DNA of 64,000 nucleotides, from sequence record MN342150. One strand, written 5' to 3'. Shown in pieces: positions 2,309 through 20,198 of the stretch. Under the pieces are notes generated by a model, which did not search any database, was not told where the DNA came from, and was given only the letters and a program-made list of their open reading frames with translations. Both the position numbers and the translations under genes were made by a program. This DNA is from Escherichia phage vB_EcoM_3HA11. Within the stretch, counting starts at the first letter, position 1. Each line of letters begins with the position of its first letter.

Positions 2309-5074
2309 ATGACCAGAAATGTAGAAGAATTATTCGGCGGCGTAATCACAGCTCCCCACCAGATTCCTTTCACGTATAAATCAAATGTCGGTGGAGAAAC
2401 TTTCCTTTCCTTGCCGTTCTATCCTGTCACTGGCGTAGTCACAATTAACGGCGGCATGCAAGTTCCGTTAGACAACTTCGAGATAGACGGGAATACGTTG
2501 AATCTCGGGCGCGCATTGTCCAAAGGCGATGTTGTGTATTGCTTATTCGATAAAATTCTTTCACCAGAAGACACTGCCAAAGGCATCCGCATATACAAAT
2601 TTCAAGCCGTGGGTGGAGAAACTGAATTCACGCCTGACTTTACTTCTTATGGTGTACAGTCTCTTTATATCGGTGGCGAGTACAAAACTCCTGATATAGA
2701 ATATTCGTACAACAGTACGACTGGGAAAGTGTCTTTGCAAACTGCATTGACTGCAGGCGTTTGGGTAGTCGCTGAAATCTCTGTTAAACAACCGAATATC
2801 AGTCCGGCGTTTGACCGCAGTATTCAAGAAATTGCCCGTTCTGCTAATGTGAAAGACTCTGAAGTCATCGTTAGTACGGACACCATATCTTTGTTGGATG
2901 GGAAGAAAGTTGTTTATGACATAGCGGCACAAACCAGTTATGGTTTACCAACCATTCCTGATGGTTCTGTCATTTCTACGATCTCAGACGGGAAATTGAA
3001 TTACAACCCAGGTGATGTGCAGGTTGATTTGTTGCCTTTAGAAGATTCATTTATTAATGTGATAAACACTCTGGGGCGCAATGATGGTGCCAAGTATATC
3101 GGAGAATGCCATTCTGTTGCTGATCTCAGGAATACTGAACCCACTATGGATGGACAACGCATTATTCTTAAGCAACACACTGCGGGTACTCTTCTTGGTG
3201 GAGGGGTATTCCGTGCGTTAATTGATGGTACAGGAAAGACTGATGATAACGGTACTGTGATCAAAACTGTTGGCGGCGCAGCCTGGTTACGTGTTAATGC
3301 TGATAGAGTTAACCCATTCATGTTTGGTGCTTTGGGTGGTTCTAATGATGATACTATTCCAGTACAATCTTGTGTGGACAGTGGTAAGGCCACACAATTA
3401 ACTGGTATACATTACGTTAGCAATATCCAGTTAAAATATAATACGTCGTCTATTTATGGGTCTGGATTACATTACTCCAGGTTGCATCAGTTGCCTTCTG
3501 CTACTGGGAATTGTATTACCATAAAAGATACATGCTCCCTTATTGTATTAGACTCCTTTGGGGTATATGGCACAGGTGCACAACAAGGCACATCATTTAC
3601 TGCGGGTACAACAGGTATCTATATAGAAACTCCTTCAGGTCTCTCAGCCGATTATCCGTTCCACACTACCGCAGACCCAAGACGCGACTTGTGTATTTCT
3701 AAGGTCCATATAGCAGGTTTTGATGAATATGGGTTAAATATTGATAGTGGTAACTTTAGTGTTACTACAGATTCTCTTTTAGTCAACCACATCAATCAGG
3801 TGGGCGTCCGTTGTGCTACTACTGATTGGACTTGGACAAATATCCAGGTTAATACCTGCGGTAAACAATGTCTGGTTCTTGATGGTTGTGGTAATGGTCG
3901 TATTATTGGTGGTAAATTCATTTGGGCTAACTGGCAACCTTATGGTACAGTAGGACAGTTCCCAGGCATTACTATTAATAATAGCCAGAATATGGTTATT
4001 AATGGTATTGAGGTACAAGATTGTGGCGGGAATGGCATTGAGATTAGCGATTCATATTCAATTTCCATGAACGGATTGAACACCAATCGTAACGGCATCA
4101 ACGCTAACAACACTTTCTACAACATCGTATTTAACAAAAGTGATGCAGTTATCAACGGATTCGTAGGACTCAATTATGCCGCGAATAGTGGTTCAGGTGC
4201 TAACTCTAGTGCGGGCAATTTTCAGTTCCTGTCTAATGATTGCAGCGTCACCATTAATGGTGTGGTTGAGACTGGTTATATGGGCATTAACTTTATTGGT
4301 GATAACAATATTATCAACCCCACAAATTCCGACCTGAGCATTAACGGATTGGTTAATTATTCCAAGACTGGTTTGCAAACCATGAACGAGACCCCTACAT
4401 TTGATGGTGTTAGCACTACACCTGTTTATGTAAGTGTCCCATCTTCTGTAGGGCAAGTAAATGGTCTGAGACTATCACAAGCCAACAAAGATAAATTACT
4501 GTACTCAAGAACAGCAGGTCCAGAAGGTATTACCATGGCTGCTGTTGTAGTACCTACCATATCTGGAGCTGAAGTATTTAACTTCATGGCCATTGGTTCA
4601 GGGTTTAGTGATACATCCAACAGTCTTCATCTTCAATTAGTTATAGACGCTTCCGGAAAACAAACAATTGCTTTGCTATTGGGGGGCGATGGTACAACCC
4701 AAATTTTATCTGGGGATTTACCTAACGACCTTAAACTACAAAGTGGTGTGCCATATCATATAGCTATTGGTGCTAAACCTGGATATTTCTGGTGGAGTAT
4801 TCTTAATATTCAGACGGGTAAGAGAATCAGACGGTCATTCCGAGGCGCTTATTTAGCTGTACCATTTAATTCTATATTCGGATTAACTTCTTCATTAACA
4901 TTCTTCTCGGATAGCAATGCTGGTGGGGATGCCTGTTCTGGTGTAGGTGCTAAAGTGTATGTTGGTATGTTCTCTTCTGAGAATGATTATGTAGCTTCAC
5001 GGTACTACAACCTGATTAATCCTGTAGACCCTAATAAGTTAATTAGTTACCGTATATTGGATTCTTCTATTTAA
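2309..5074 (+). CDS. Tailspike / tail fibre protein 2 with parallel beta-helix-like repeats
   Basis: 921 aa counted from the ATG at 2309 (ORF track opens at 2294; start chosen by analogy with the first cassette copy where the ATG inside the hairpin is not the start); Gly/Asn-rich repetitive segments (..VINGIEVQDCGGNGIEISD..NGLNTNRNGINANN..) typical of pectate-lyase-like beta-helices. Confidence 0.55.
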   Translation: MTRNVEELFGGVITAPHQIPFTYKSNVGGETFLSLPFYPVTGVVTINGGMQVPLDNFEIDGNTLNLGRALSKGDVVYCLFDKILSPEDTAKGIRIYKFQAVGGETEFTPDFTSYGVQSLYIGGEYKTPDIEYSYNSTTGKVSLQTALTAGVWVVAEISVKQPNISPAFDRSIQEIARSANVKDSEVIVSTDTISLLDGKKVVYDIAAQTSYGLPTIPDGSVISTISDGKLNYNPGDVQVDLLPLEDSFINVINTLGRNDGAKYIGECHSVADLRNTEPTMDGQRIILKQHTAGTLLGGGVFRALIDGTGKTDDNGTVIKTVGGAAWLRVNADRVNPFMFGALGGSNDDTIPVQSCVDSGKATQLTGIHYVSNIQLKYNTSSIYGSGLHYSRLHQLPSATGNCITIKDTCSLIVLDSFGVYGTGAQQGTSFTAGTTGIYIETPSGLSADYPFHTTADPRRDLCISKVHIAGFDEYGLNIDSGNFSVTTDSLLVNHINQVGVRCATTDWTWTNIQVNTCGKQCLVLDGCGNGRIIGGKFIWANWQPYGTVGQFPGITINNSQNMVINGIEVQDCGGNGIEISDSYSISMNGLNTNRNGINANNTFYNIVFNKSDAVINGFVGLNYAANSGSGANSSAGNFQFLSNDCSVTINGVVETGYMGINFIGDNNIINPTNSDLSINGLVNYSKTGLQTMNETPTFDGVSTTPVYVSVPSSVGQVNGLRLSQANKDKLLYSRTAGPEGITMAAVVVPTISGAEVFNFMAIGSGFSDTSNSLHLQLVIDASGKQTIALLLGGDGTTQILSGDLPNDLKLQSGVPYHIAIGAKPGYFWWSILNIQTGKRIRRSFRGAYLAVPFNSIFGLTSSLTFFSDSNAGGDACSGVGAKVYVGMFSSENDYVASRYYNLINPVDPNKLISYRILDSSI

Positions 5075-7527: not shown

Positions 7528-10500
7528 ATGCAATCTACAAATTTAAACCGTCGCCCGTATTGGGATGACTGGAATCCTGGGAAACGTTTTTCACGGATTC
7601 TTTTTCGTCCGATGCCTATCAAGGTTCAGACTCGCGAACTGAACCAGATGCAGACTATTCTTCAGGATCAAATTGAAAAACTGGGCAACCATCTGTTCAA
7701 AGATGGTTCTATGGTTATCCCTGGCGGTCTGACGATCACCAATGCCGCAGTCTCTTTGAAATTCACTTTGGCGGGTGGTACTGAATTCACCGATCTGGAA
7801 GGTATTTCTGAACTCTACGTTTTGGGGAAAGACAATAACGCCAAAGCGCGTGTGTTGTCTCTTGAACGTGATCTGTCTGCTCCTGATACGATGTTGGCCA
7901 TCCTTGAGATGACTGAAGCGGGTAATGCTGACGGATTCCATGTTAACGATAATCTGTATTTCCAGACTTACGACGTGAATGATAATTTCATTCGTATTGG
8001 TTATGGGATCGCGGCTGCTGTAACTGGTTCTATCGTTGCTCGTATGACGAAAGGCGTTTACTTCATTCGTGGAATGTTTCTAGACGTTGATGACGCGACT
8101 CTCATCGTCGATAAAACTTCAAACACTTCTTCCCACCGTGTCGGATTTAAAGTCACTGAAACCATCGTGACTGAATCTGAAGACGAATCCCTTTATTCAA
8201 ATGCTCAGGGAACGATTAACTCCAAAGCCCCAGGCGCTCATCGTCTTCGAATAGATCTGGTTTTGTCTCGATTTGATTATGATGCTGTGGTTGAAGACTT
8301 TGTTGAACTGGCCAAAGTTCGTGATGGTAAAATCCAGTCTATGGTGACTCAGTCCACCTATAATATTCTGGAAGACACGTTGGCTCAACGGACGTATGAA
8401 ACCAACGGCGATTACAACGTTTCAACGCATCAGATCGACATCCGCGAACACCTGAAAGTCAATAACAATGGTGGTGTATTCAATGCTGCTGATGGCGGCG
8501 ACGAAAGTAAATTCGTGTCTGTAATGAAACCAGGTATTTCCTATGTTCGCGGTCGTCGTATCGAAAACGTCGGGGAAGAGTTGGTGATCGTTGACAAGGC
8601 ACGGGATACCGATGTCCTGAATAACACGCCTGTTGCAGTCGCTACAGGGAATTATCTGGTCACCAAGAACTCCAAAGGTGTTCCAGTAATATCTCGCACT
8701 GTGCGATACAAGTTATTGAACGCGTCCGGCGCTGCTCAAGCCACGGCGTTGTGTATATCCGCTGAACGCAATTCAACTGAATTCCGTCTGTACATGCGTG
8801 ATTTGGTTGTGACTGGGGACGCGTCCACTATCACCAAAGTATCTTATGAAGAAAGTGGTATCACCATGTTCTCTGCTGAACTGGAATCCAACCAGTTTAA
8901 CCAGAGTTCTATGGTAGACCTGATCTTCTCTCTTCCGGTCTTCGGTGTTAAAACATTAGCGCCAACAGGTTCCGTGGATATCAACTACACCGTTCTCCGA
9001 ACTTACAAAGTCACTCTGGACAATAGCGGTTCTGGTTCTATTTCAGCCCCACTGGGATATAGTTTCTCTCCTGAATTTTCGTTGTATTCTTCTGCGAAAT
9101 CCGATGGTTCAGAAGCGCAATTTGATATCTCTGGCTCTTTGTCACTGACTGGTTCTCCGGTGGGATCGGCTTTGCAGATTTCCCTGGGTAGCGGTAATGC
9201 TAACCAGTCAATCAATTTGCTGGCACTGATGATCCGCACTACGGCCACGATCAAAACGAAGACGATAACTGAAACCACAGAGTCTGTGACTTTTACTTCC
9301 CAAACCAGTAGACCTCTGGCAAATCACGATGGCTGGAAATTGGTATCTGTCAAAAATGATACCGGCGCGGACGTGACTTCGAGCTTCACCCTCGACGGTG
9401 GTCAACGCGATGCGGGATATTACAAGGCTAATCTGTTATCCACCGCTGGAGCCATTTCAGGGACGTATACGGTGGTGTATCAATACTTCGCGCATAGTTC
9501 GGGAGATTTCTTCTCAGCGGATTCGTATACTTCGATGGATTATAAAGATATCCCGAATTATACATCTTCTACATCAGGCGCGGTGTACGGCCTGGCAGAT
9601 AGTTTAGATTTCCGTCCGAAAATCACCAACGGAACTTCTGACACAGATATGGTTCGTCCAAACACTGCAGTTATTCTGGACACAGAATATTATCTGCCGC
9701 GTATCGACGCGATTTATCTGGCAGACAACGGTGTGTTTGGTGTGGCTCGAGGCATCAGTTCTAATAATCTGGCTTCTCCAGCAATCCCAGCGAACGCCAT
9801 GCGTTTGTATGAATTGTTGATCCCGCCGTATACACCGAATATTGATGATATCCAAATTCGAACTATTGATAATCGTCGTTATACAATGCGCGATATCGGT
9901 AAACTGGAAACCCGTATTTCCAATGTTGAATACTATACCTCTCTGTCACAGCTGGAATCTTCAGCGATGACACAGCAAGTGTTTGACCCCATCACGGGTA
10001 ATCCTCGTTTCAAAAATGGTATTGCAGCTGATCCGTTCAAAGACTTCCGGTTGATTGATGACTTGTCTGAAGATTGGATGGGTTCTATCGATACCGAAAA
10101 CGGACGTCTACGCCCGTTTGTACAACAGAACGTTGTTGACATGACTCCGGTTGGCTGGAACAAAGTGATGGATGGGATGGTGGTTTGTAATTACACACCT
10201 GAAATCTCAGTGAACCAAGAATATGCGACGACGACGATCAACGTTAACCCGTATGCAGTATTCAATTGGGAAGGTTTCTTGAAGATTAACCCGACCACAG
10301 ACTACTGGTTCGAAAACTATTATGTTGCCCCGCGTATTATTAATGAAACGATCAACACCCGTGGTACTGTACAAGAAGGTTCAGTGTACGGAACATGGCG
10401 GACTGTTTCTGTTTCTGATCGTGTTTGGGAGCCGCATGGTGCTGGTGGTGTGTGGTGGGGATATCGTTACCGCACGACTGTTTCTGCCCGTGATGTCACC

Positions 10501-14677: not shown

Positions 14678-15376
14678 ATGGCCAGACCATTTGAAAAATA
14701 TTTCTACCATGAATCGTTGTTGAAATACATTCATGTCTTCAACGCTATCATGTCAGATTTAAAAGTCAAAACCGAACGTGGCTTGATGGAAATCCCGCTG
14801 CATATGGCTATTGGCCGTCGCAATGACCTCAACAGGAACGTACCAGCTAATATGCTGCCATTTGCAACAATGTCCTTCGGTCAATTCGAAATTAATAAAC
14901 AAGTGACCAAGTCGTATCATAATCAGATATCGACTGCAACTGCGCGGTCCAAACAACGAATTCCGATCATTATAGATTTTGAATATAACATCAGAACGAA
15001 GAAACTGGTCGAAATGCTACAGGTGTTGGAACAAATTTATTCTGTGTTCACTCCTTCCATTGATTGTCAGATAAAAGACAACGATACGTTATCTCAAGAT
15101 CAAAACGTAAAGATCATGTTGACATCCCATACCATTTCCGATAACTGGGAAGGGGATGCCGCTGAATCACCCCATATAGATTGCACCTTTAATTTTCAAT
15201 TACATGGACACATTTATGGCGAAGATTATTGGGTCGATGATGGCTCTGGCGGTGGTGATCCGAACGTTATCAAAGAGATAATTATTGAAATGTCTAATGA
15301 TTTGAACATGCCATGGTCGGAACTTCCTGAGTGGTTCCGAGTTGATAAAGACGGCATACATCATCCGGAGGATTGA
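14678..15376 (+). CDS. Tail sheath stabiliser / tail completion protein, gp15-like
   Basis: 232 aa; position between gp14 and terminase small subunit as in T4; assignment mainly by synteny. Confidence 0.5.
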   Translation: MARPFEKYFYHESLLKYIHVFNAIMSDLKVKTERGLMEIPLHMAIGRRNDLNRNVPANMLPFATMSFGQFEINKQVTKSYHNQISTATARSKQRIPIIIDFEYNIRTKKLVEMLQVLEQIYSVFTPSIDCQIKDNDTLSQDQNVKIMLTSHTISDNWEGDAAESPHIDCTFNFQLHGHIYGEDYWVDDGSGGGDPNVIKEIIIEMSNDLNMPWSELPEWFRVDKDGIHHPED

Positions 15377-15378
15377 TC

Positions 15379-16059
15379 ATGAGCAATATGTCAGAAAGGT
15401 TACTCGCTACGCTTGATGCGGTGACCGCCCGAGACGAAGTTGGGAAGGAGGCGATGGAGGCTGTCGCCCCTCGTCCAGGTATTGACTTCGATGAAAATAC
15501 AGGTGAATGGTTTGGTGAACGTCCGGAAGGGTATCAGCCGATTCCTGAACCGCCTTCATTGGAGGATATTGCTTCCAAGGAATCCAAAGTACCTGAGTTT
15601 GCGGATACTGATGCTACAACGGATTACAAACGGATACGCGACACAACATATGCCATGCAAGAAGCCACAATGTTCATGATGGGACAAGCCGCTAAATTGG
15701 CTGCATCCACAGAAGCTCCGCGAGCATTTTCCGTGTTTCGTGAATTGGGCGAACTCATGCGCGGCCTGAACAAAGACCTGATGGAAAACCAAAAAACCAT
15801 CAAAGCTGTGACAGGGGATAAAGAACCGCCGACTGATGACACGACAGTGGATGTTACCACTTCACCCGACGGGACCACAACAGTATCTGTTGGGAAAAAG
15901 GCGAGATCTTCGCGCGATTTATTGAAGACGATCGAAGATGCACGCCGCCGCGCTGAAGAAAGAGCACAAGCAAAGGCCGCACAACAACCAGAAGATGAAA
16001 TCATTGATGGTGAAACAGTTGACGTGAAGGAAGAAGACGATGGCGTATCAGAAGCGTGA
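15379..16059 (+). CDS. Terminase small subunit (gp16-like)
   Basis: ATG after GGAGGA; immediately upstream of and overlapping the large terminase gene; assignment by synteny. Confidence 0.5.
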   Translation: MSNMSERLLATLDAVTARDEVGKEAMEAVAPRPGIDFDENTGEWFGERPEGYQPIPEPPSLEDIASKESKVPEFADTDATTDYKRIRDTTYAMQEATMFMMGQAAKLAASTEAPRAFSVFRELGELMRGLNKDLMENQKTIKAVTGDKEPPTDDTTVDVTTSPDGTTTVSVGKKARSSRDLLKTIEDARRRAEERAQAKAAQQPEDEIIDGETVDVKEEDDGVSEA

Positions 16060-18250
16060 TATAGAATATGCCCCAATTAAAACGGGGTTCAAAATAGACG
16101 ATGTGAAATTGCGTATGGACCAAACGTTCATGCGCAAACCTTCTGTGCGTGCTCCTCGAGTCGAGTTAATGCTGACAGATGAACAAGAAGACGAATTCGT
16201 TGAATGTTCTATGGATGCACACTACTTCGCCGCCAACTATTACAAGATAACCACGATCGATAAAGGCTTTATCCTTTTCGATATGCATGATTATCAGAAA
16301 CAATTGTTCCATGACTTTCAGGACTATCGATTCAATGCGGTCGTCCAGGCTCGTCAGTCCGGTAAATGCGTCCGTGGTGATACTCTTGTTTATGTCTATG
16401 ATACAATCAGTCAACAAGAGTTGCATCTCACCATAGAAGAGCTTCACAAGCGCTTCGAAGGACCGAACCATGCTGTGCCACTGAATACCATTGGCAACCA
16501 CAATAAGTTTGTAGACAGCCGTTTCGGGAAACGATATTTTGTTGAGTCCGACACTGGCTGGGTTCCGGTTATTGCCGCTCATAAAACGAAAGAATACGCT
16601 GAATACGTGGTCAGGACTGAAACCGGACGCACAATTCATGTCGCAGATGAGCACATGTTCTTCAATGAATATGGGCGCGAAGTATTTGCTAAAGACATGG
16701 AGGCTGGAGATGCCATAATGACCCAGGAGGGAATAGAATTCATCTCTGAGATCTGGGAGACTGGTGAGTACCACCACATGTATGACTTGCAAGTCAAGTC
16801 CAGCGATCAACGTTATTACACGAATGGGTTCCTCAGCCATAATACCACGGTCGTGGCTGCGTTTCTTCTTTGGTATGCGATGTTCCACTCAGACAAAGAA
16901 ATCGCGGTACTGGCAAACAAAGAGAAACAAGCGATTGAAATTCTTGACCGTATCAGGAAGGCGTATCAGGACCTCCCATTCTTCCTTCAGCAGGGTTGTG
17001 AGAAGTTTGGTTCTACACTGATAGAGTTTGAGAACGGCTCTAAGATATATGCTTATGCAACGTCTTCGGACTCTATTCGTGGTCGTTCTGTATCTCTCTT
17101 GTACGTGGACGAAGTCGCATTCATCGAAAATGACTTTGAATTTTGGGAATCAACATTCCCAGCGATCGCATCTGCTGATACTTCACGTTGTATTCTGACC
17201 AGTACTCCGAAAGGCCAGCGAGGGTTGTTCTATGATATCGTCACCAAAGCAGACCCGCGCCATCCACAATACAACGATTTCCATCTTACCGAAGTCCCTT
17301 GGTACAAGGTTCCGGCGTACACCAAAGACCCTGATTGGGAAACCAAACAACGCGCTCGTCTGGGGGATGCCCGTTTTGACCAGGAATTTGGAATCAAGTT
17401 CCGTGGTTCTGTAGGTTCATTGATACCAGCCAAATGCTTGGATAAAATGACATCCAAGTTATATCGAGAGCCTAATGAGTTCACCAAAATTTACAAGGAA
17501 TATGACCCGCAACGCATCTACTTCGGGATCGCAGATACGGGGAAAGGTGTTGAAGGAGATTATTCGGTTCTGACAATTCTGGATATAACGGAATACCCGC
17601 ATGTCATAGCGGCCAAGTACAGGAACAATACAATACCTCCGATGATGTATGCATACACGATAGCTGATATGTGTACTGAATACGGGGAGTGTCCAGTCCT
17701 TGTAGAAACCAACAACGACGTTGGTGGACAGGTTATTACAATCTTGTATCAAGAAATTGAGTATCCAGAGATTATATTCACGTCGACGGATAACAAAGGG
17801 ACAGGGAAACGGATTGGTGGTCGTAAACCAGAGCCAGGCATTAACACCAACAGGAAAGTGCGATCTATTGGTTGTGCTAACCTGAAAGCGCTTATTGAGA
17901 AAGAAATGTTGGTGATTGAAGATCAAGACACGATAGATGAACTCAGCACATTCGTGTTCCGTGGTGCGCGTTATGAAGCAGATGATGGTTGTCACGACGA
18001 CTGCGTTATGCCGTTGGTATTATATTCTTGGGCAGTTAAACAAGAATGGTTCAGTGATCTGACTTCTACCAGTATTTCTCAAGACATGAGAAATAGAATG
18101 TCTTCGACTGAGTCACAACAAGTATTCCCATTTGGTGGTTTAGTCGTGGGAGACACTCCATCTGGAACTGAGCATCTCCCTGGGTTCGGTGGTGTTCAAG
18201 TCTTCGACGAACGTTCAGGGATGACAATGGACGAGTGGTTTAAGAATTGA
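16040..18250 (+). CDS. Terminase large subunit (gp17-like), intein-containing
   Basis: Walker A split as ..ARQSGK | intein | TTVVAAFLLWY..; joined extein gives QSGKTT P-loop like T4 gp17; ~577 aa after excision. Confidence 0.9.
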   Translation: MAYQKRDIEYAPIKTGFKIDDVKLRMDQTFMRKPSVRAPRVELMLTDEQEDEFVECSMDAHYFAANYYKITTIDKGFILFDMHDYQKQLFHDFQDYRFNAVVQARQSGKCVRGDTLVYVYDTISQQELHLTIEELHKRFEGPNHAVPLNTIGNHNKFVDSRFGKRYFVESDTGWVPVIAAHKTKEYAEYVVRTETGRTIHVADEHMFFNEYGREVFAKDMEAGDAIMTQEGIEFISEIWETGEYHHMYDLQVKSSDQRYYTNGFLSHNTTVVAAFLLWYAMFHSDKEIAVLANKEKQAIEILDRIRKAYQDLPFFLQQGCEKFGSTLIEFENGSKIYAYATSSDSIRGRSVSLLYVDEVAFIENDFEFWESTFPAIASADTSRCILTSTPKGQRGLFYDIVTKADPRHPQYNDFHLTEVPWYKVPAYTKDPDWETKQRARLGDARFDQEFGIKFRGSVGSLIPAKCLDKMTSKLYREPNEFTKIYKEYDPQRIYFGIADTGKGVEGDYSVLTILDITEYPHVIAAKYRNNTIPPMMYAYTIADMCTEYGECPVLVETNNDVGGQVITILYQEIEYPEIIFTSTDNKGTGKRIGGRKPEPGINTNRKVRSIGCANLKALIEKEMLVIEDQDTIDELSTFVFRGARYEADDGCHDDCVMPLVLYSWAVKQEWFSDLTSTSISQDMRNRMSSTESQQVFPFGGLVVGDTPSGTEHLPGFGGVQVFDERSGMTMDEWFKN
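16367..16843 (+). mobile_element. Mini-intein (159 aa) inserted in the terminase P-loop
   Basis: Begins with Cys (CVRGDTLV), contains block-B-like TIHV, ends ..YDLQV....NGFLSHN followed by +1 Thr; no homing endonuclease domain. Confidence 0.8.
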
Positions 18251-18253
18251 TCA

Positions 18254-18261
18254 CTAAATAT
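18254..18261 (+). promoter_or_regulatory. Late-promoter-like box CTAAATAT
   Basis: 42 nt upstream of the tail sheath ATG at 18303. Confidence 0.4.
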
Positions 18262-18302
18262 CTTTCAAATTGAGCGAAACTCTACCGAGAAGGAATAACA
18301 TT

Positions 18303-20198
18303 ATGGCAACTCAAAGCTTCAGCGTTGCGCCGTCCGTACAGTGGACTGAGCGTGATGCCACGCTTCAGACTTCTCCGTCCGTGGTTGTTCAGGGCGCGAC
18401 AGTCGGCAAATTTCAATGGGGTGAAGTCGAACTCCCAGTGCTGGTGACTGGTGGTGAGACGGGTTTGGTGAAGAAATTCTTCAAACCTAATGACAGCACT
18501 GCGACAGATTTCCTTGTGATTGCAGACTTTTTGTCTTACAGCTCTATGGCATGGGTCACTCGTGTTGTTGGTCCTCTGGCCAAGAACTCTGTCACCAAAG
18601 GCCAGACAGCCATCACGATCAAAAACAAGCTGGATTTTGAAACAGCAAGTCCGTCAGCGTCTATCACTTGGGCTGGTCGTTATCCAGGATCTCTGGGGAA
18701 TGACATCGCCATCAATGTTTGTGACTCCGCTGGATTCCCGACATGGGAATTCCGTAACAACTTTGCGTACGCACCTCAGTCTGGTGAATTCCATGTTGTG
18801 GTTGTAGACAAAGTTGGGCGCATTACTGACTCTGCTGGTGCGGTTGGTCAGGTTGACCGTATCTCTGTTTCTGGCACGGCAACCGCAGCTGGCACCATCA
18901 GTGTGGCGGGTGAAGATATCGCATATCTGGATACTGATACTCCGGCCACTTTGGCGACCAAAATTGGCGCGGCGCTGACGGCGCTGACAGATGTTTATTC
19001 TTCTGTCGTTGTTAAGTCTAACACTGTCATCGTGACCCATAAAGCCATTGGTCCCCAGACAGTTACTGCTATTGTTCCAGATGATAAGGGGCTGACTGCA
19101 ACCGCCGTGATTACCACTGTTGGCGCATCTGGTTCTATTATCGAAAAATACGAACTCATGCAGAACACACAGGGTTCCAAAAAGTCCGATGGCGCGAATG
19201 CGTACTTCAAAGATGTCATCAATGATACATCAAATTGGGTGTACACCTTCGCCACCGCTCTGGCCGCAGGTGTTGTTGAATTAGAAGGCGGCGTAGACGA
19301 CTACAATATCAACCGTGTCGCGGCTATCCAAGTTCTGAACAACGCCGAAGCATATGATGCGAAGCCAGTATTTGCATACTGTGAAGAGTTGATTGAACAA
19401 CAGGCATTAATCGACTTGTCTACCGAGCGAAAAGACACCGTTTCCTTCGTGTCGCCTTTGCGTGATACTGTGGTCGGCAACCGTGGCCGTGAGATGGACG
19501 ATGTGGTCGCTTGGCGTGAAAGTCTGGTGCGCGACTCCTCCTATTTCTTCATGGACGACAACTGGGCATACGTGTACGATAAATACAACGATAAGATGCG
19601 CTGGATCCCTGCTTGCGGCGGTACAGCGGGTGTTTGGGCACGTAGTATTGAAATCGCGGGTATCTACAAATCTCCTGCGTTCCACAACCGTGGCAAATAC
19701 AACAACTACAATCGAATGGCGTGGTCTGCGTCTTCCGATGAACGTGCCGTGTTGTACCGCAACCAGATTAACAGCATCGTGACCTTCTCCAATGAAGGTA
19801 TCGTGTTGTATGGTGACAAAACTGGCCTGACTCGTCCGTCTGCTTTCGATCGTATCAATGTTCGCGGTCTGTTTATTATGGCAGAACAGAACATCGCTGC
19901 AATCGCCAAATATTACCTTGGTGAGAACAATGATGCGTTCACTCGCAGCCTGTTCAGCAACGCTGTTCGTCCTTATATTCGCCAACTGGCAAATATGGGT
20001 GCGATCTACGATGGTAAAGTCAAGTGTGACGAAGATAACAACACTGCTGATGTTATCGCAGCCAACACCATGGTTGCAGGCATTTGGTTGAAGCCTGAGT
20101 ACAGCATTAATTGGGTATATTTGGATTTTGCTGCAGTTCGACCAGATATGGAATTCTCCGAGATCGAATCAGGCGGCGGCATCGTTGCTGCATCCTAA
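18303..20198 (+). CDS. Tail sheath protein (gp18-like)
   Basis: 631 aa from ATG after GAGAAGGA; position between terminase and tail tube; size close to T4 gp18. Confidence 0.75.
   Translation: MATQSFSVAPSVQWTERDATLQTSPSVVVQGATVGKFQWGEVELPVLVTGGETGLVKKFFKPNDSTATDFLVIADFLSYSSMAWVTRVVGPLAKNSVTKGQTAITIKNKLDFETASPSASITWAGRYPGSLGNDIAINVCDSAGFPTWEFRNNFAYAPQSGEFHVVVVDKVGRITDSAGAVGQVDRISVSGTATAAGTISVAGEDIAYLDTDTPATLATKIGAALTALTDVYSSVVVKSNTVIVTHKAIGPQTVTAIVPDDKGLTATAVITTVGASGSIIEKYELMQNTQGSKKSDGANAYFKDVINDTSNWVYTFATALAAGVVELEGGVDDYNINRVAAIQVLNNAEAYDAKPVFAYCEELIEQQALIDLSTERKDTVSFVSPLRDTVVGNRGREMDDVVAWRESLVRDSSYFFMDDNWAYVYDKYNDKMRWIPACGGTAGVWARSIEIAGIYKSPAFHNRGKYNNYNRMAWSASSDERAVLYRNQINSIVTFSNEGIVLYGDKTGLTRPSAFDRINVRGLFIMAEQNIAAIAKYYLGENNDAFTRSLFSNAVRPYIRQLANMGAIYDGKVKCDEDNNTADVIAANTMVAGIWLKPEYSINWVYLDFAAVRPDMEFSEIESGGGIVAAS

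Follow-up and report, generated by a model that had tools for sequence, protein, structure and literature searches.

How can a phage make an active large terminase (TerL) when 477 nt of in-frame sequence interrupt the Walker A motif, or P-loop, of the enzyme? The question is raised by a stretch of 64,000 nucleotides from Escherichia phage vB_EcoM_3HA11 (record MN342150), a Kuttervirus of the family Ackermannviridae; the stretch is called the window below. It is very likely, in our view, that nucleotides 16367-16843 encode a contiguous class 1 mini-intein lying between Lys109 and Thr269 of the TerL Walker A motif (GK/T), and that protein splicing would restore the P-loop. The locus is made up as follows.

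16040..18250, plus strand: open reading frame (ORF) of the intein-bearing TerL precursor, T4 gp17-type, 736 aa plus stop (from the ORF list).
16040..16366, plus strand: N-extein, residues 1-109; its last residues, RQSGK (nt 16352-16366), are the first half of Walker A.
16367..16843, plus strand: mini-intein, assigned to class 1, 159 aa (Cys110-Asn268), from profiles, PDB sequence matches, the AlphaFold2 model with its HINT fold and the boundaries in GenBank KF669653 and MH688040.
16844..18247, plus strand: C-extein, residues 269-736; its first residue, Thr269 (nt 16844-16846), is both the +1 nucleophile and the Thr of Walker A.

Judged from its sequence, the host protein is a large terminase of the T4 gp17 type, with an N-terminal ATPase domain that holds Walker A and a C-terminal RNase H-like nuclease domain. 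Pfam places Terminase_6N at residues 269-460 of the 736-aa precursor and Terminase_6C at residues 498-629, and the 577-aa spliced form matches the T4 gp17 structures 3ezk and 3cpe over spliced residues 28-516 (E 5e-76). The gene is 99.9% identical to that of Escherichia phage ECML-4 and Salmonella phages FSL SP-063, SP-029 and Guerrero, and has 98.3% nucleotide identity to that of Salmonella phages Marshall, Maynard and Mooltan (Kuttervirus, Ackermannviridae).

The insertion point can be given to the residue. Across its two junctions the precursor reads VVQARQSGK / CVRGDTLV ... NGFLSHN / TTVVAAFLLWY; the Cys110 codon occupies nt 16367-16369, the last nucleotide of the Asn268 codon is 16843, and Thr follows as residue 269. 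An earlier note, made from the letters of the window alone, had placed an insert in the TerL P-loop at 16367-16843, and reading of the ORF and its codons shows these coordinates to be exact. It had also held that removal of residues 110-268 restores QSGKTT; the deletion indeed yields a 577-aa protein with ARQSGKTTVVAAF, in which RQSGKTT is intact (ARQSGK/TTVVAAF) and the sequence onward from Thr269, directly after Lys109, is TTVVAAFLLWYAMFHSDK. Over Walker A this spliced form aligns with T4 gp17 without a gap (SRQLGKTTVVAIFL versus ARQSGKTTVVAAFL; SRQLGKTTVVA in T4), and the insert therefore sits exactly between the Walker A Lys and Thr.

Alleles without the insert occur in nature. With an 80-aa peptide spanning the spliced junction, the Erwinia phages phiEa2809 and Bue1 (Ackermannviridae, Nezavisimistyvirus) gave one unbroken 240-nt match of 90% identity; the remaining Ackermannviridae among the matches listed were split in two pieces over 717 nt. 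The TerL gene of phiEa2809 is 1743 nt long, and its empty site is identical to the rejoined site of the window at 45 of 60 nt and 18 of 20 aa. An uninterrupted RQSGKTT is likewise found in the metagenomic TerLs P0017-P0021 (575-581 aa, 74-85% identical to the window TerL). The alignment with related terminases that the earlier note proposed thus locates the same insertion point; intein-free TerLs homologous through all 159 residues, which it named as evidence to the contrary, were not what these searches returned, since phiEa2809, Bue1 and P0017-P0021 are continuous without the insert.

Intein profiles, the second check proposed, and fold searches point to a HINT splicing domain. The insert matches Pfam Intein_splicing (PF14890; E 3.5e-8, 33.9 bits), NCBIfam intein_Nterm (TIGR01445; 25.4 bits for the insert alone, cut-off 24.5) and, weakly, intein_Cterm (TIGR01443; 11.9-13.4 bits, cut-off 15.6). 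Its best PDB sequence matches are the inteins gp41-1 (E 8e-4), CDC21, the engineered consensus CatC and VidaL. An AlphaFold2 model built on an alignment of 22 inteins (pLDDT 95.4, pTM 0.88) is a single all-beta domain with two short helices at intein residues 23-29 and 36-43. When it was compared with the PDB by Foldseek, the 50 best listed matches were all inteins or BIL domains, with a probability of 1.00; VidaL came first, TM-scores on gp41-1 reached 0.84-0.85 and BIL structures ranked below inteins. The earlier note had judged the insert too short for a homing endonuclease, and this agrees with what was found: one HINT domain, an extra two-helix stretch of about 20 residues and no match to any endonuclease family in Pfam, NCBIfam or PHROGs. 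The insert is thus a mini-intein of 159 aa without an endonuclease domain. PHROGs holds no family for it, and the 22-intein profile, searched against the six-frame translation of the window, matched TerL only and revealed no further intein.

A protein database query with the intein alone gave 4 matches, and the whole precursor had to be used to recover inteins at the same site. From TerL homologues with a RQ.GK/C junction we took 27 mini-inteins (150-181 aa), and the window intein was aligned with 21. These same-site inteins are only 32-79% identical. Invariant in the 22 sequences are C1, K47, F48, G64, T74, A93, D94, H96, G114, M138, D140, Y150, T152, L156, S157, H158 and N159, and block A V2 and T6 are conserved in at least 90%. 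The +1 residue of the same-site mini-inteins is Thr in all except one, which has Ser. In intein numbering, the motifs are these.

16367..16402, plus strand: block A, CVRGDTLVYVYD, with the nucleophile Cys1 at nt 16367-16369 (C1 invariant in the 22).
16433..16504, plus strand: two-helix extra segment after block A, intein residues about 23-46 (AlphaFold2 helices; a gapped, variable block of the alignment).
16643..16654, plus strand: block B, A-D-E-H, intein residues 93-96 and precursor residues 202-205, His96 being His205 (A93, D94 and H96 invariant; aligns with SEEH of gp41-1).
16766..16801, plus strand: block F, EYHHMYDLQVKS, with invariant Met138 and Asp140 (Asp codon nt 16784-16786), from the alignment.
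16814..16843, plus strand: block G, YYTNGFLSHN, with penultimate His158 and terminal Asn159 (Y150, T152, L156, S157, H158 and N159 invariant).

By these motifs (block A Cys, block B His, block F Asp, block G His-Asn and +1 Thr) the insert is assigned to class 1. The Cys1, terminal His-Asn and +1 Thr of the earlier note are present as Cys110, His267-Asn268 and Thr269. Its "block-B-like TIHV" has to be given up: that position is variable among relatives (RINV, TLKC and others), and the real block B is the ADEH four residues further on. Other kinds of element could be set aside. A class 3 intein, with a WCT triplet and a nucleophilic Cys in block F, is ruled out, the sole Cys being Cys1 and the block F position being Asp140; a naturally split terminase intein is ruled out by the one unbroken ORF at 16040-18250. 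BIL domains are found in proteins that vary and are not conserved; they cleave rather than splice and mostly lack a +1 nucleophile. The insert, in contrast, is followed by a +1 Thr and interrupts the best-conserved motif of an essential enzyme, which rules out a BIL domain.

From these residues we infer splicing by the following chemistry. The precursor would be made as a single 736-aa chain, in which Cys110, with the help of block B His205, would undergo an N-S acyl shift that converts the Lys109-Cys110 bond into a thioester. The hydroxyl of Thr269 would then attack the thioester to give a branched ester, and Asn268, aided by the penultimate His267 and by block F Asp249, would form a succinimide and free the 159-aa intein. 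Finally, an O-N shift would create the Lys109-Thr269 peptide bond. The product would be the 577-aa TerL with an intact ARQSGKTT P-loop, and ATP binding, ATP hydrolysis and DNA packaging would be expected of this spliced form only. Dependence of the ATPase activity on splicing, as the earlier note had suggested, would follow from the position of the insert inside Walker A together with the viability of the phages.

TerL is an essential protein, and the insert is common. A tblastn search with the intein matched 320 phage records, 281 of them at a coverage of at least 80%; the hosts of the matched phages are mostly Salmonella, Klebsiella, Escherichia, Dickeya, Serratia and Shigella, and weaker matches, covering the C-terminal 60-70%, lie in TerL of Vibrio, Salicola and Campylobacter phages. 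About 280 records that carry the insert in this essential gene bear the names of phage isolates, so that the precursor would have to be processed. Moreover, in pairs with unsaturated dS the dN/dS of the intein is 0.03-0.15, versus 0.04-0.11 for the exteins; such low values indicate that its protein sequence is constrained by purifying selection. Experiments have demonstrated splicing for five terminase inteins of mycobacteriophages, which occupy other insertion sites (PMC5050341).

Several observations weigh against an intact, splicing intein. The PF14890 score lies below the curated cut-off of 35.8 bits, and TIGR01445 within the full-length protein reaches 20.7 bits, which is also below its cut-off. 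In block B, Ala replaces the Thr of the canonical TxxH motif, and does so in every family member. Among the three residues permitted at +1 (Cys, Ser and Thr), Thr is the least reactive. Lastly, our literature searches gave no experimental evidence of splicing for this or any other Ackermannviridae TerL intein, and a proteomics paper on a Vi01-like phage yielded no direct evidence of it.

The alternative that survives best accepts the intein and questions its role: splicing might be conditional, a post-translational switch that delays or gates TerL according to redox, temperature, nucleotide or assembly state, and the intein might be retained across the Ackermannviridae for that benefit and not as a pure selfish passenger. 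The idea has been raised for P-loop inteins in general (PMC5050341). It would fit an element that is near-fixed in several genera despite having no endonuclease, that is under purifying selection and that lies in a catalytic P-loop, where the unspliced protein should be inactive. However, a selfish intein in an essential motif, from which only precise loss is tolerated, equally predicts fixation and purifying selection. The sequence indicates no sensor, Cys1 is the single Cys of this allele, so that a disulfide trap is impossible, and intein-free relatives such as phiEa2809 are viable phages. We therefore regard such a switch as quite unlikely.

The marginal Pfam and NCBIfam scores and the missing block B Thr could also suggest a degenerate HINT domain that no longer splices and is tolerated, or even used, in the mature terminase. 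In that case 159 residues would part the Walker A Lys from its Thr. Degenerate inteins would moreover be expected to lose the +1 nucleophile and the terminal His-Asn, which are kept in the same-site relatives; the residues for all four splicing steps are invariant among relatives that share as little as 32% and at most 79% identity. This makes a non-splicing domain very improbable. Hardly credible, finally, is the view that the 477 nt are removed or bypassed as nucleic acid (a self-splicing intron or a programmed bypass) or belong to a gene on the opposite strand: Campylobacter phage TerL does have introns with endonuclease genes (PMC3322345) and a 240-aa antisense ORF (16166..16888, minus strand) overlaps the insert, but no relevant Rfam family, group I and II introns included, was found in window positions 15000-19000 at E-values up to 1, and the insert is in frame, free of stops, under purifying selection as protein and folded as a HINT domain. 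The antisense ORF itself was rejected as a spurious gene, as it contains 2-4 stops in all seven relatives checked versus one in the window.

The intein was already known. It has been annotated at the same residues in sister phages since 2013: the GenBank record of Marshall (KF669653) names an [quoted passage not shown] and sets mat_peptide features on the corresponding 477 nt; Mooltan (MH688040) carries an intein feature at the same 477-nt position; intein features on Maynard (KF669654) and Klebsiella phage Magnus (MN045230) match the homologous 477 nt as well. A stand-alone entry in nr, "intein [Salmonella phage Maynard]", is 99% identical. The genome announcements of 2013 state that the large terminase "is interrupted by an intein" (PMC3853055, PMC3868846), and a 2024 review of the Ackermannviridae leaves inteins unmentioned. 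The intein is thus known to annotators but unstudied, and in the Marshall, Maynard, Mooltan and Magnus records its annotation comes from domain prediction alone. The TerL inteins of Marshall, Maynard and Mooltan share gene, site and coordinates with that of the window, which is 99.4% identical in amino acids to Marshall's (one residue differs) and 84.3% identical to that of Magnus. Our results hence add little that is new, terminase P-loop inteins being a textbook case. They do illustrate that an intein can be recognized by reading raw sequence, and the remaining interest lies in splicing itself and in the mobility of an intein free of endonuclease.

By site, the nearest well-described systems are the TerL1-a P-loop inteins of mycobacteriophages. 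Kelley et al. (2016) described for mycobacteriophage TerL an intein insertion that separates the invariant Lys from the nucleophilic Thr, and called it the "classic" one of the P-loop (PMC5050341); TerL1-a inteins occupy this same Walker A position and have to splice for the active site to form (PMC5050341). Their hosts are Terminase_1 proteins, unlike the Terminase_6 protein of the window, and several TerL1-a inteins carry active endonuclease domains. By sequence, gp41-1 (6qaz) is the best PDB match (over intein residues 58-159); its structural TM-score is 0.84. It, too, is a class 1 HINT domain that comes from a phage and has no endonuclease, and its block G and its block B, SEEH, align with those of the window intein; however, it interrupts a DnaB-like helicase, is naturally split, has 128 aa and is only 19% identical. 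Also among the closest solved structures and sequences are VidaL (6vgv, Foldseek E 3e-11) and the consensus CatC ("Cat", 6dsl_B, phmmer E 0.003), whose block G is near-identical to that of the window, YYTNG(I/F)(V/L)SH. Trans-splicing of the split inteins AceL-TerL and GOS-TerL has been proven experimentally, according to reviews. Their S2 split, after helix alpha1, corresponds to the extra helical segment of the window intein, which in contrast is contiguous, would act in cis and is followed by Thr, where a review table gives Cys at +1 for AceL-TerL and GOS-TerL. In Vibrio phage VP-1, Salicola phage SCTP-2 and Campylobacter phages CP21 and IBB_35, tblastn found 33-40% identity over the C-terminal ~70% in genes annotated as terminases. 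The VP-1 intein shares the RQSGK/C site, and in these myoviruses the region after block A is longer or different. The TerL ORF of VP-1 adds a downstream GIY-YIG domain, and IBB_35 has in addition an intron with an HNH endonuclease gene.

How does an intein without an endonuclease persist and spread? Part of the answer may lie in exchange of alleles, which was seen in a comparison of eight genomes. The comparison takes in the gene upstream of TerL.

15373..16059, plus strand: small terminase gene (TerS), directly upstream of TerL and overlapping it by 20 nt (ORF list; syntenic with the annotation of Marshall and CBA120).

Compared with CBA120, of the same genus, the window has amino acid and nucleotide identities of 99.0% and 89.6% in the exteins but of only 78.6% and 72.5% in the intein; compared with Klebsiella phage 0507-KN2-1 (Taipeivirus), the intein is 84.3% identical in amino acids and the exteins only 88.9%. 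This disagreement between intein and extein identities indicates that intein alleles have been exchanged between lineages. In addition, TerS and the N-extein of TerL lie in a mosaic patch of the window (nt ~15340-16340, about 1 kb) with 97-100% identity to CBA120; its flanks, intein and C-extein included, are 99-100% identical to Marshall. In this patch the window thus differs from the Marshall-type phages and is CBA120-like instead. Unlike the rest of the gene, the first ~225 nt of TerL (16040-16263) are 100% identical to CBA120. On the right, the patch ends at most 16 nt ahead of the first codon of the intein. A breakpoint at the N-junction might be taken as proof of homing, and we rejected it as such, nor do we take it to speak for active homing. 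Between the intein alleles, nucleotide identity is only about 72%, so that the junction is also the place where homology for ordinary recombination ends, and the patch fits homing-type gene conversion and ordinary recombination equally well. Most likely, the intein persists since any imprecise deletion would ruin an essential motif, and ordinary recombination among co-infecting phages is what spreads it.

In other phages, endonuclease genes are found close to or inside related inteins. No homing endonuclease gene lies between TerS and TerL in the window phage. In phiD3 and SKML-39 an HNH/NUMOD3 homing endonuclease ORF of ~880 nt is located between the two genes, ~300 nt upstream of the intein, with matches to phrog_655 (E 2e-58, phiD3) and to Pfam NUMOD3 (both phages). 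TTM-TASP117 has an unclassified ORF of equal size and position.

L006 809-1687: extra ORF between TerS and TerL, Dickeya phage phiD3.
L009 809-1687: extra ORF between TerS and TerL, Salmonella phage SKML-39.
L010 806-1687: extra ORF between TerS and TerL, Klebsiella phage TTM-TASP117.

The TerL N-terminus of these three phages is altered to MAYKKEIDWAPE.

Inteins are usually invaded or split between blocks B and F. In metagenomic T4-like phages, same-site inteins of 443 and 451 aa (the latter in P0112) hold ~290 extra residues directly after block A, at the same place in both, which is where the window intein has its two-helix segment. One of the two contains a second ORF.

L011 3262-4590: 443-aa GK/T intein with a nested 294-aa ORF at 3365-4249 (plus strand), in a T4-like contig of an ENA metagenome.

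The nested ORF, read in another frame, matches phrog_22677 (E 3e-20) and, weakly, REase_MTES_1575 (a Vsr/PD-(D/E)xK-like nuclease), the intein frame staying open throughout; from these matches it looks like an out-of-frame homing endonuclease gene. No Rfam intron was found in L011. At loci with free-standing endonuclease genes, a split intein of the gp17 terminase was described by Dassa et al. (2009); its break comes at the same unusual place, after motif N1 (PMC2677866). The window mini-intein thus looks like a contiguous, endonuclease-free member of a family that is invaded or split after block A, and we offer this as a lead.

A bolder proposal is that the intein, although it has no endonuclease of its own, still moves and has not been left stranded as a passenger. 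Free-standing homing endonucleases would mobilize it in trans. The mover might be an enzyme like that of the HNH/NUMOD3 gene located between TerS and TerL in relatives of the genera Limestonevirus and Agtrevirus, or else the endonuclease-like ORF that lies, out of frame, behind block A of larger same-site inteins; the two-helix segment at that place would then be a scar left by a nested gene of this kind. In another version of the proposal, conditional splicing would time the activation of the terminase. We hold this proposal to be unlikely, although, if true, a still-mobile intein would be the protein-level counterpart of the "collaborative homing" of introns with free-standing endonucleases. 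The intein-free, mini, nested-ORF and split alleles form a natural series for the persistence and movement of endonuclease-less inteins. The window intein is compact, has a single Cys and Thr at +1 and is related to the TerL inteins with an atypical split that protein engineers use; it might also serve as a cis-splicing scaffold, and Ackermannviridae phages are themselves used for biocontrol and engineered as reporter phages.

Some minor observations were made on these and related loci. In P0086 (Vibrio phage VP-1, 738 aa), P0055, P0082 and P0113, a GIY-YIG domain follows the ATPase at the place of the nuclease domain (e.g. residues 506-589); the terminase gene is probably split there by an endonuclease gene read in frame. 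P0086, P0055 and P0082 also have the P-loop intein. The metagenomic TerL P0101 (970 aa) apparently contains two inteins, one in the P-loop and one after SSIRGKT, the second with a SegE-like GIY-YIG match of 22.6 bits, below the cut-off. In L011, the portal gene also bears an intein (from 8755-8952 onward, Portal_T4 interrupted by Intein_splicing). No tRNA was found in the window. An apparent 200-nt insertion in the intein of TTM-TASP117 (PV588649, L010 ~2180-2380), whose TerL is annotated as fragments, was discarded as an assembly artefact, consisting of a run of N (a scaffold gap) and a 62-bp duplication. The intein also leaves its mark on public records, where TerL annotation is inconsistent because of it: the TerL coding sequence of phiD3 (KM209228; L006 1677-3884) is named "pretoxin HINT domain protein", and several other records label the intein-containing TerL "hypothetical protein" or "structural protein".

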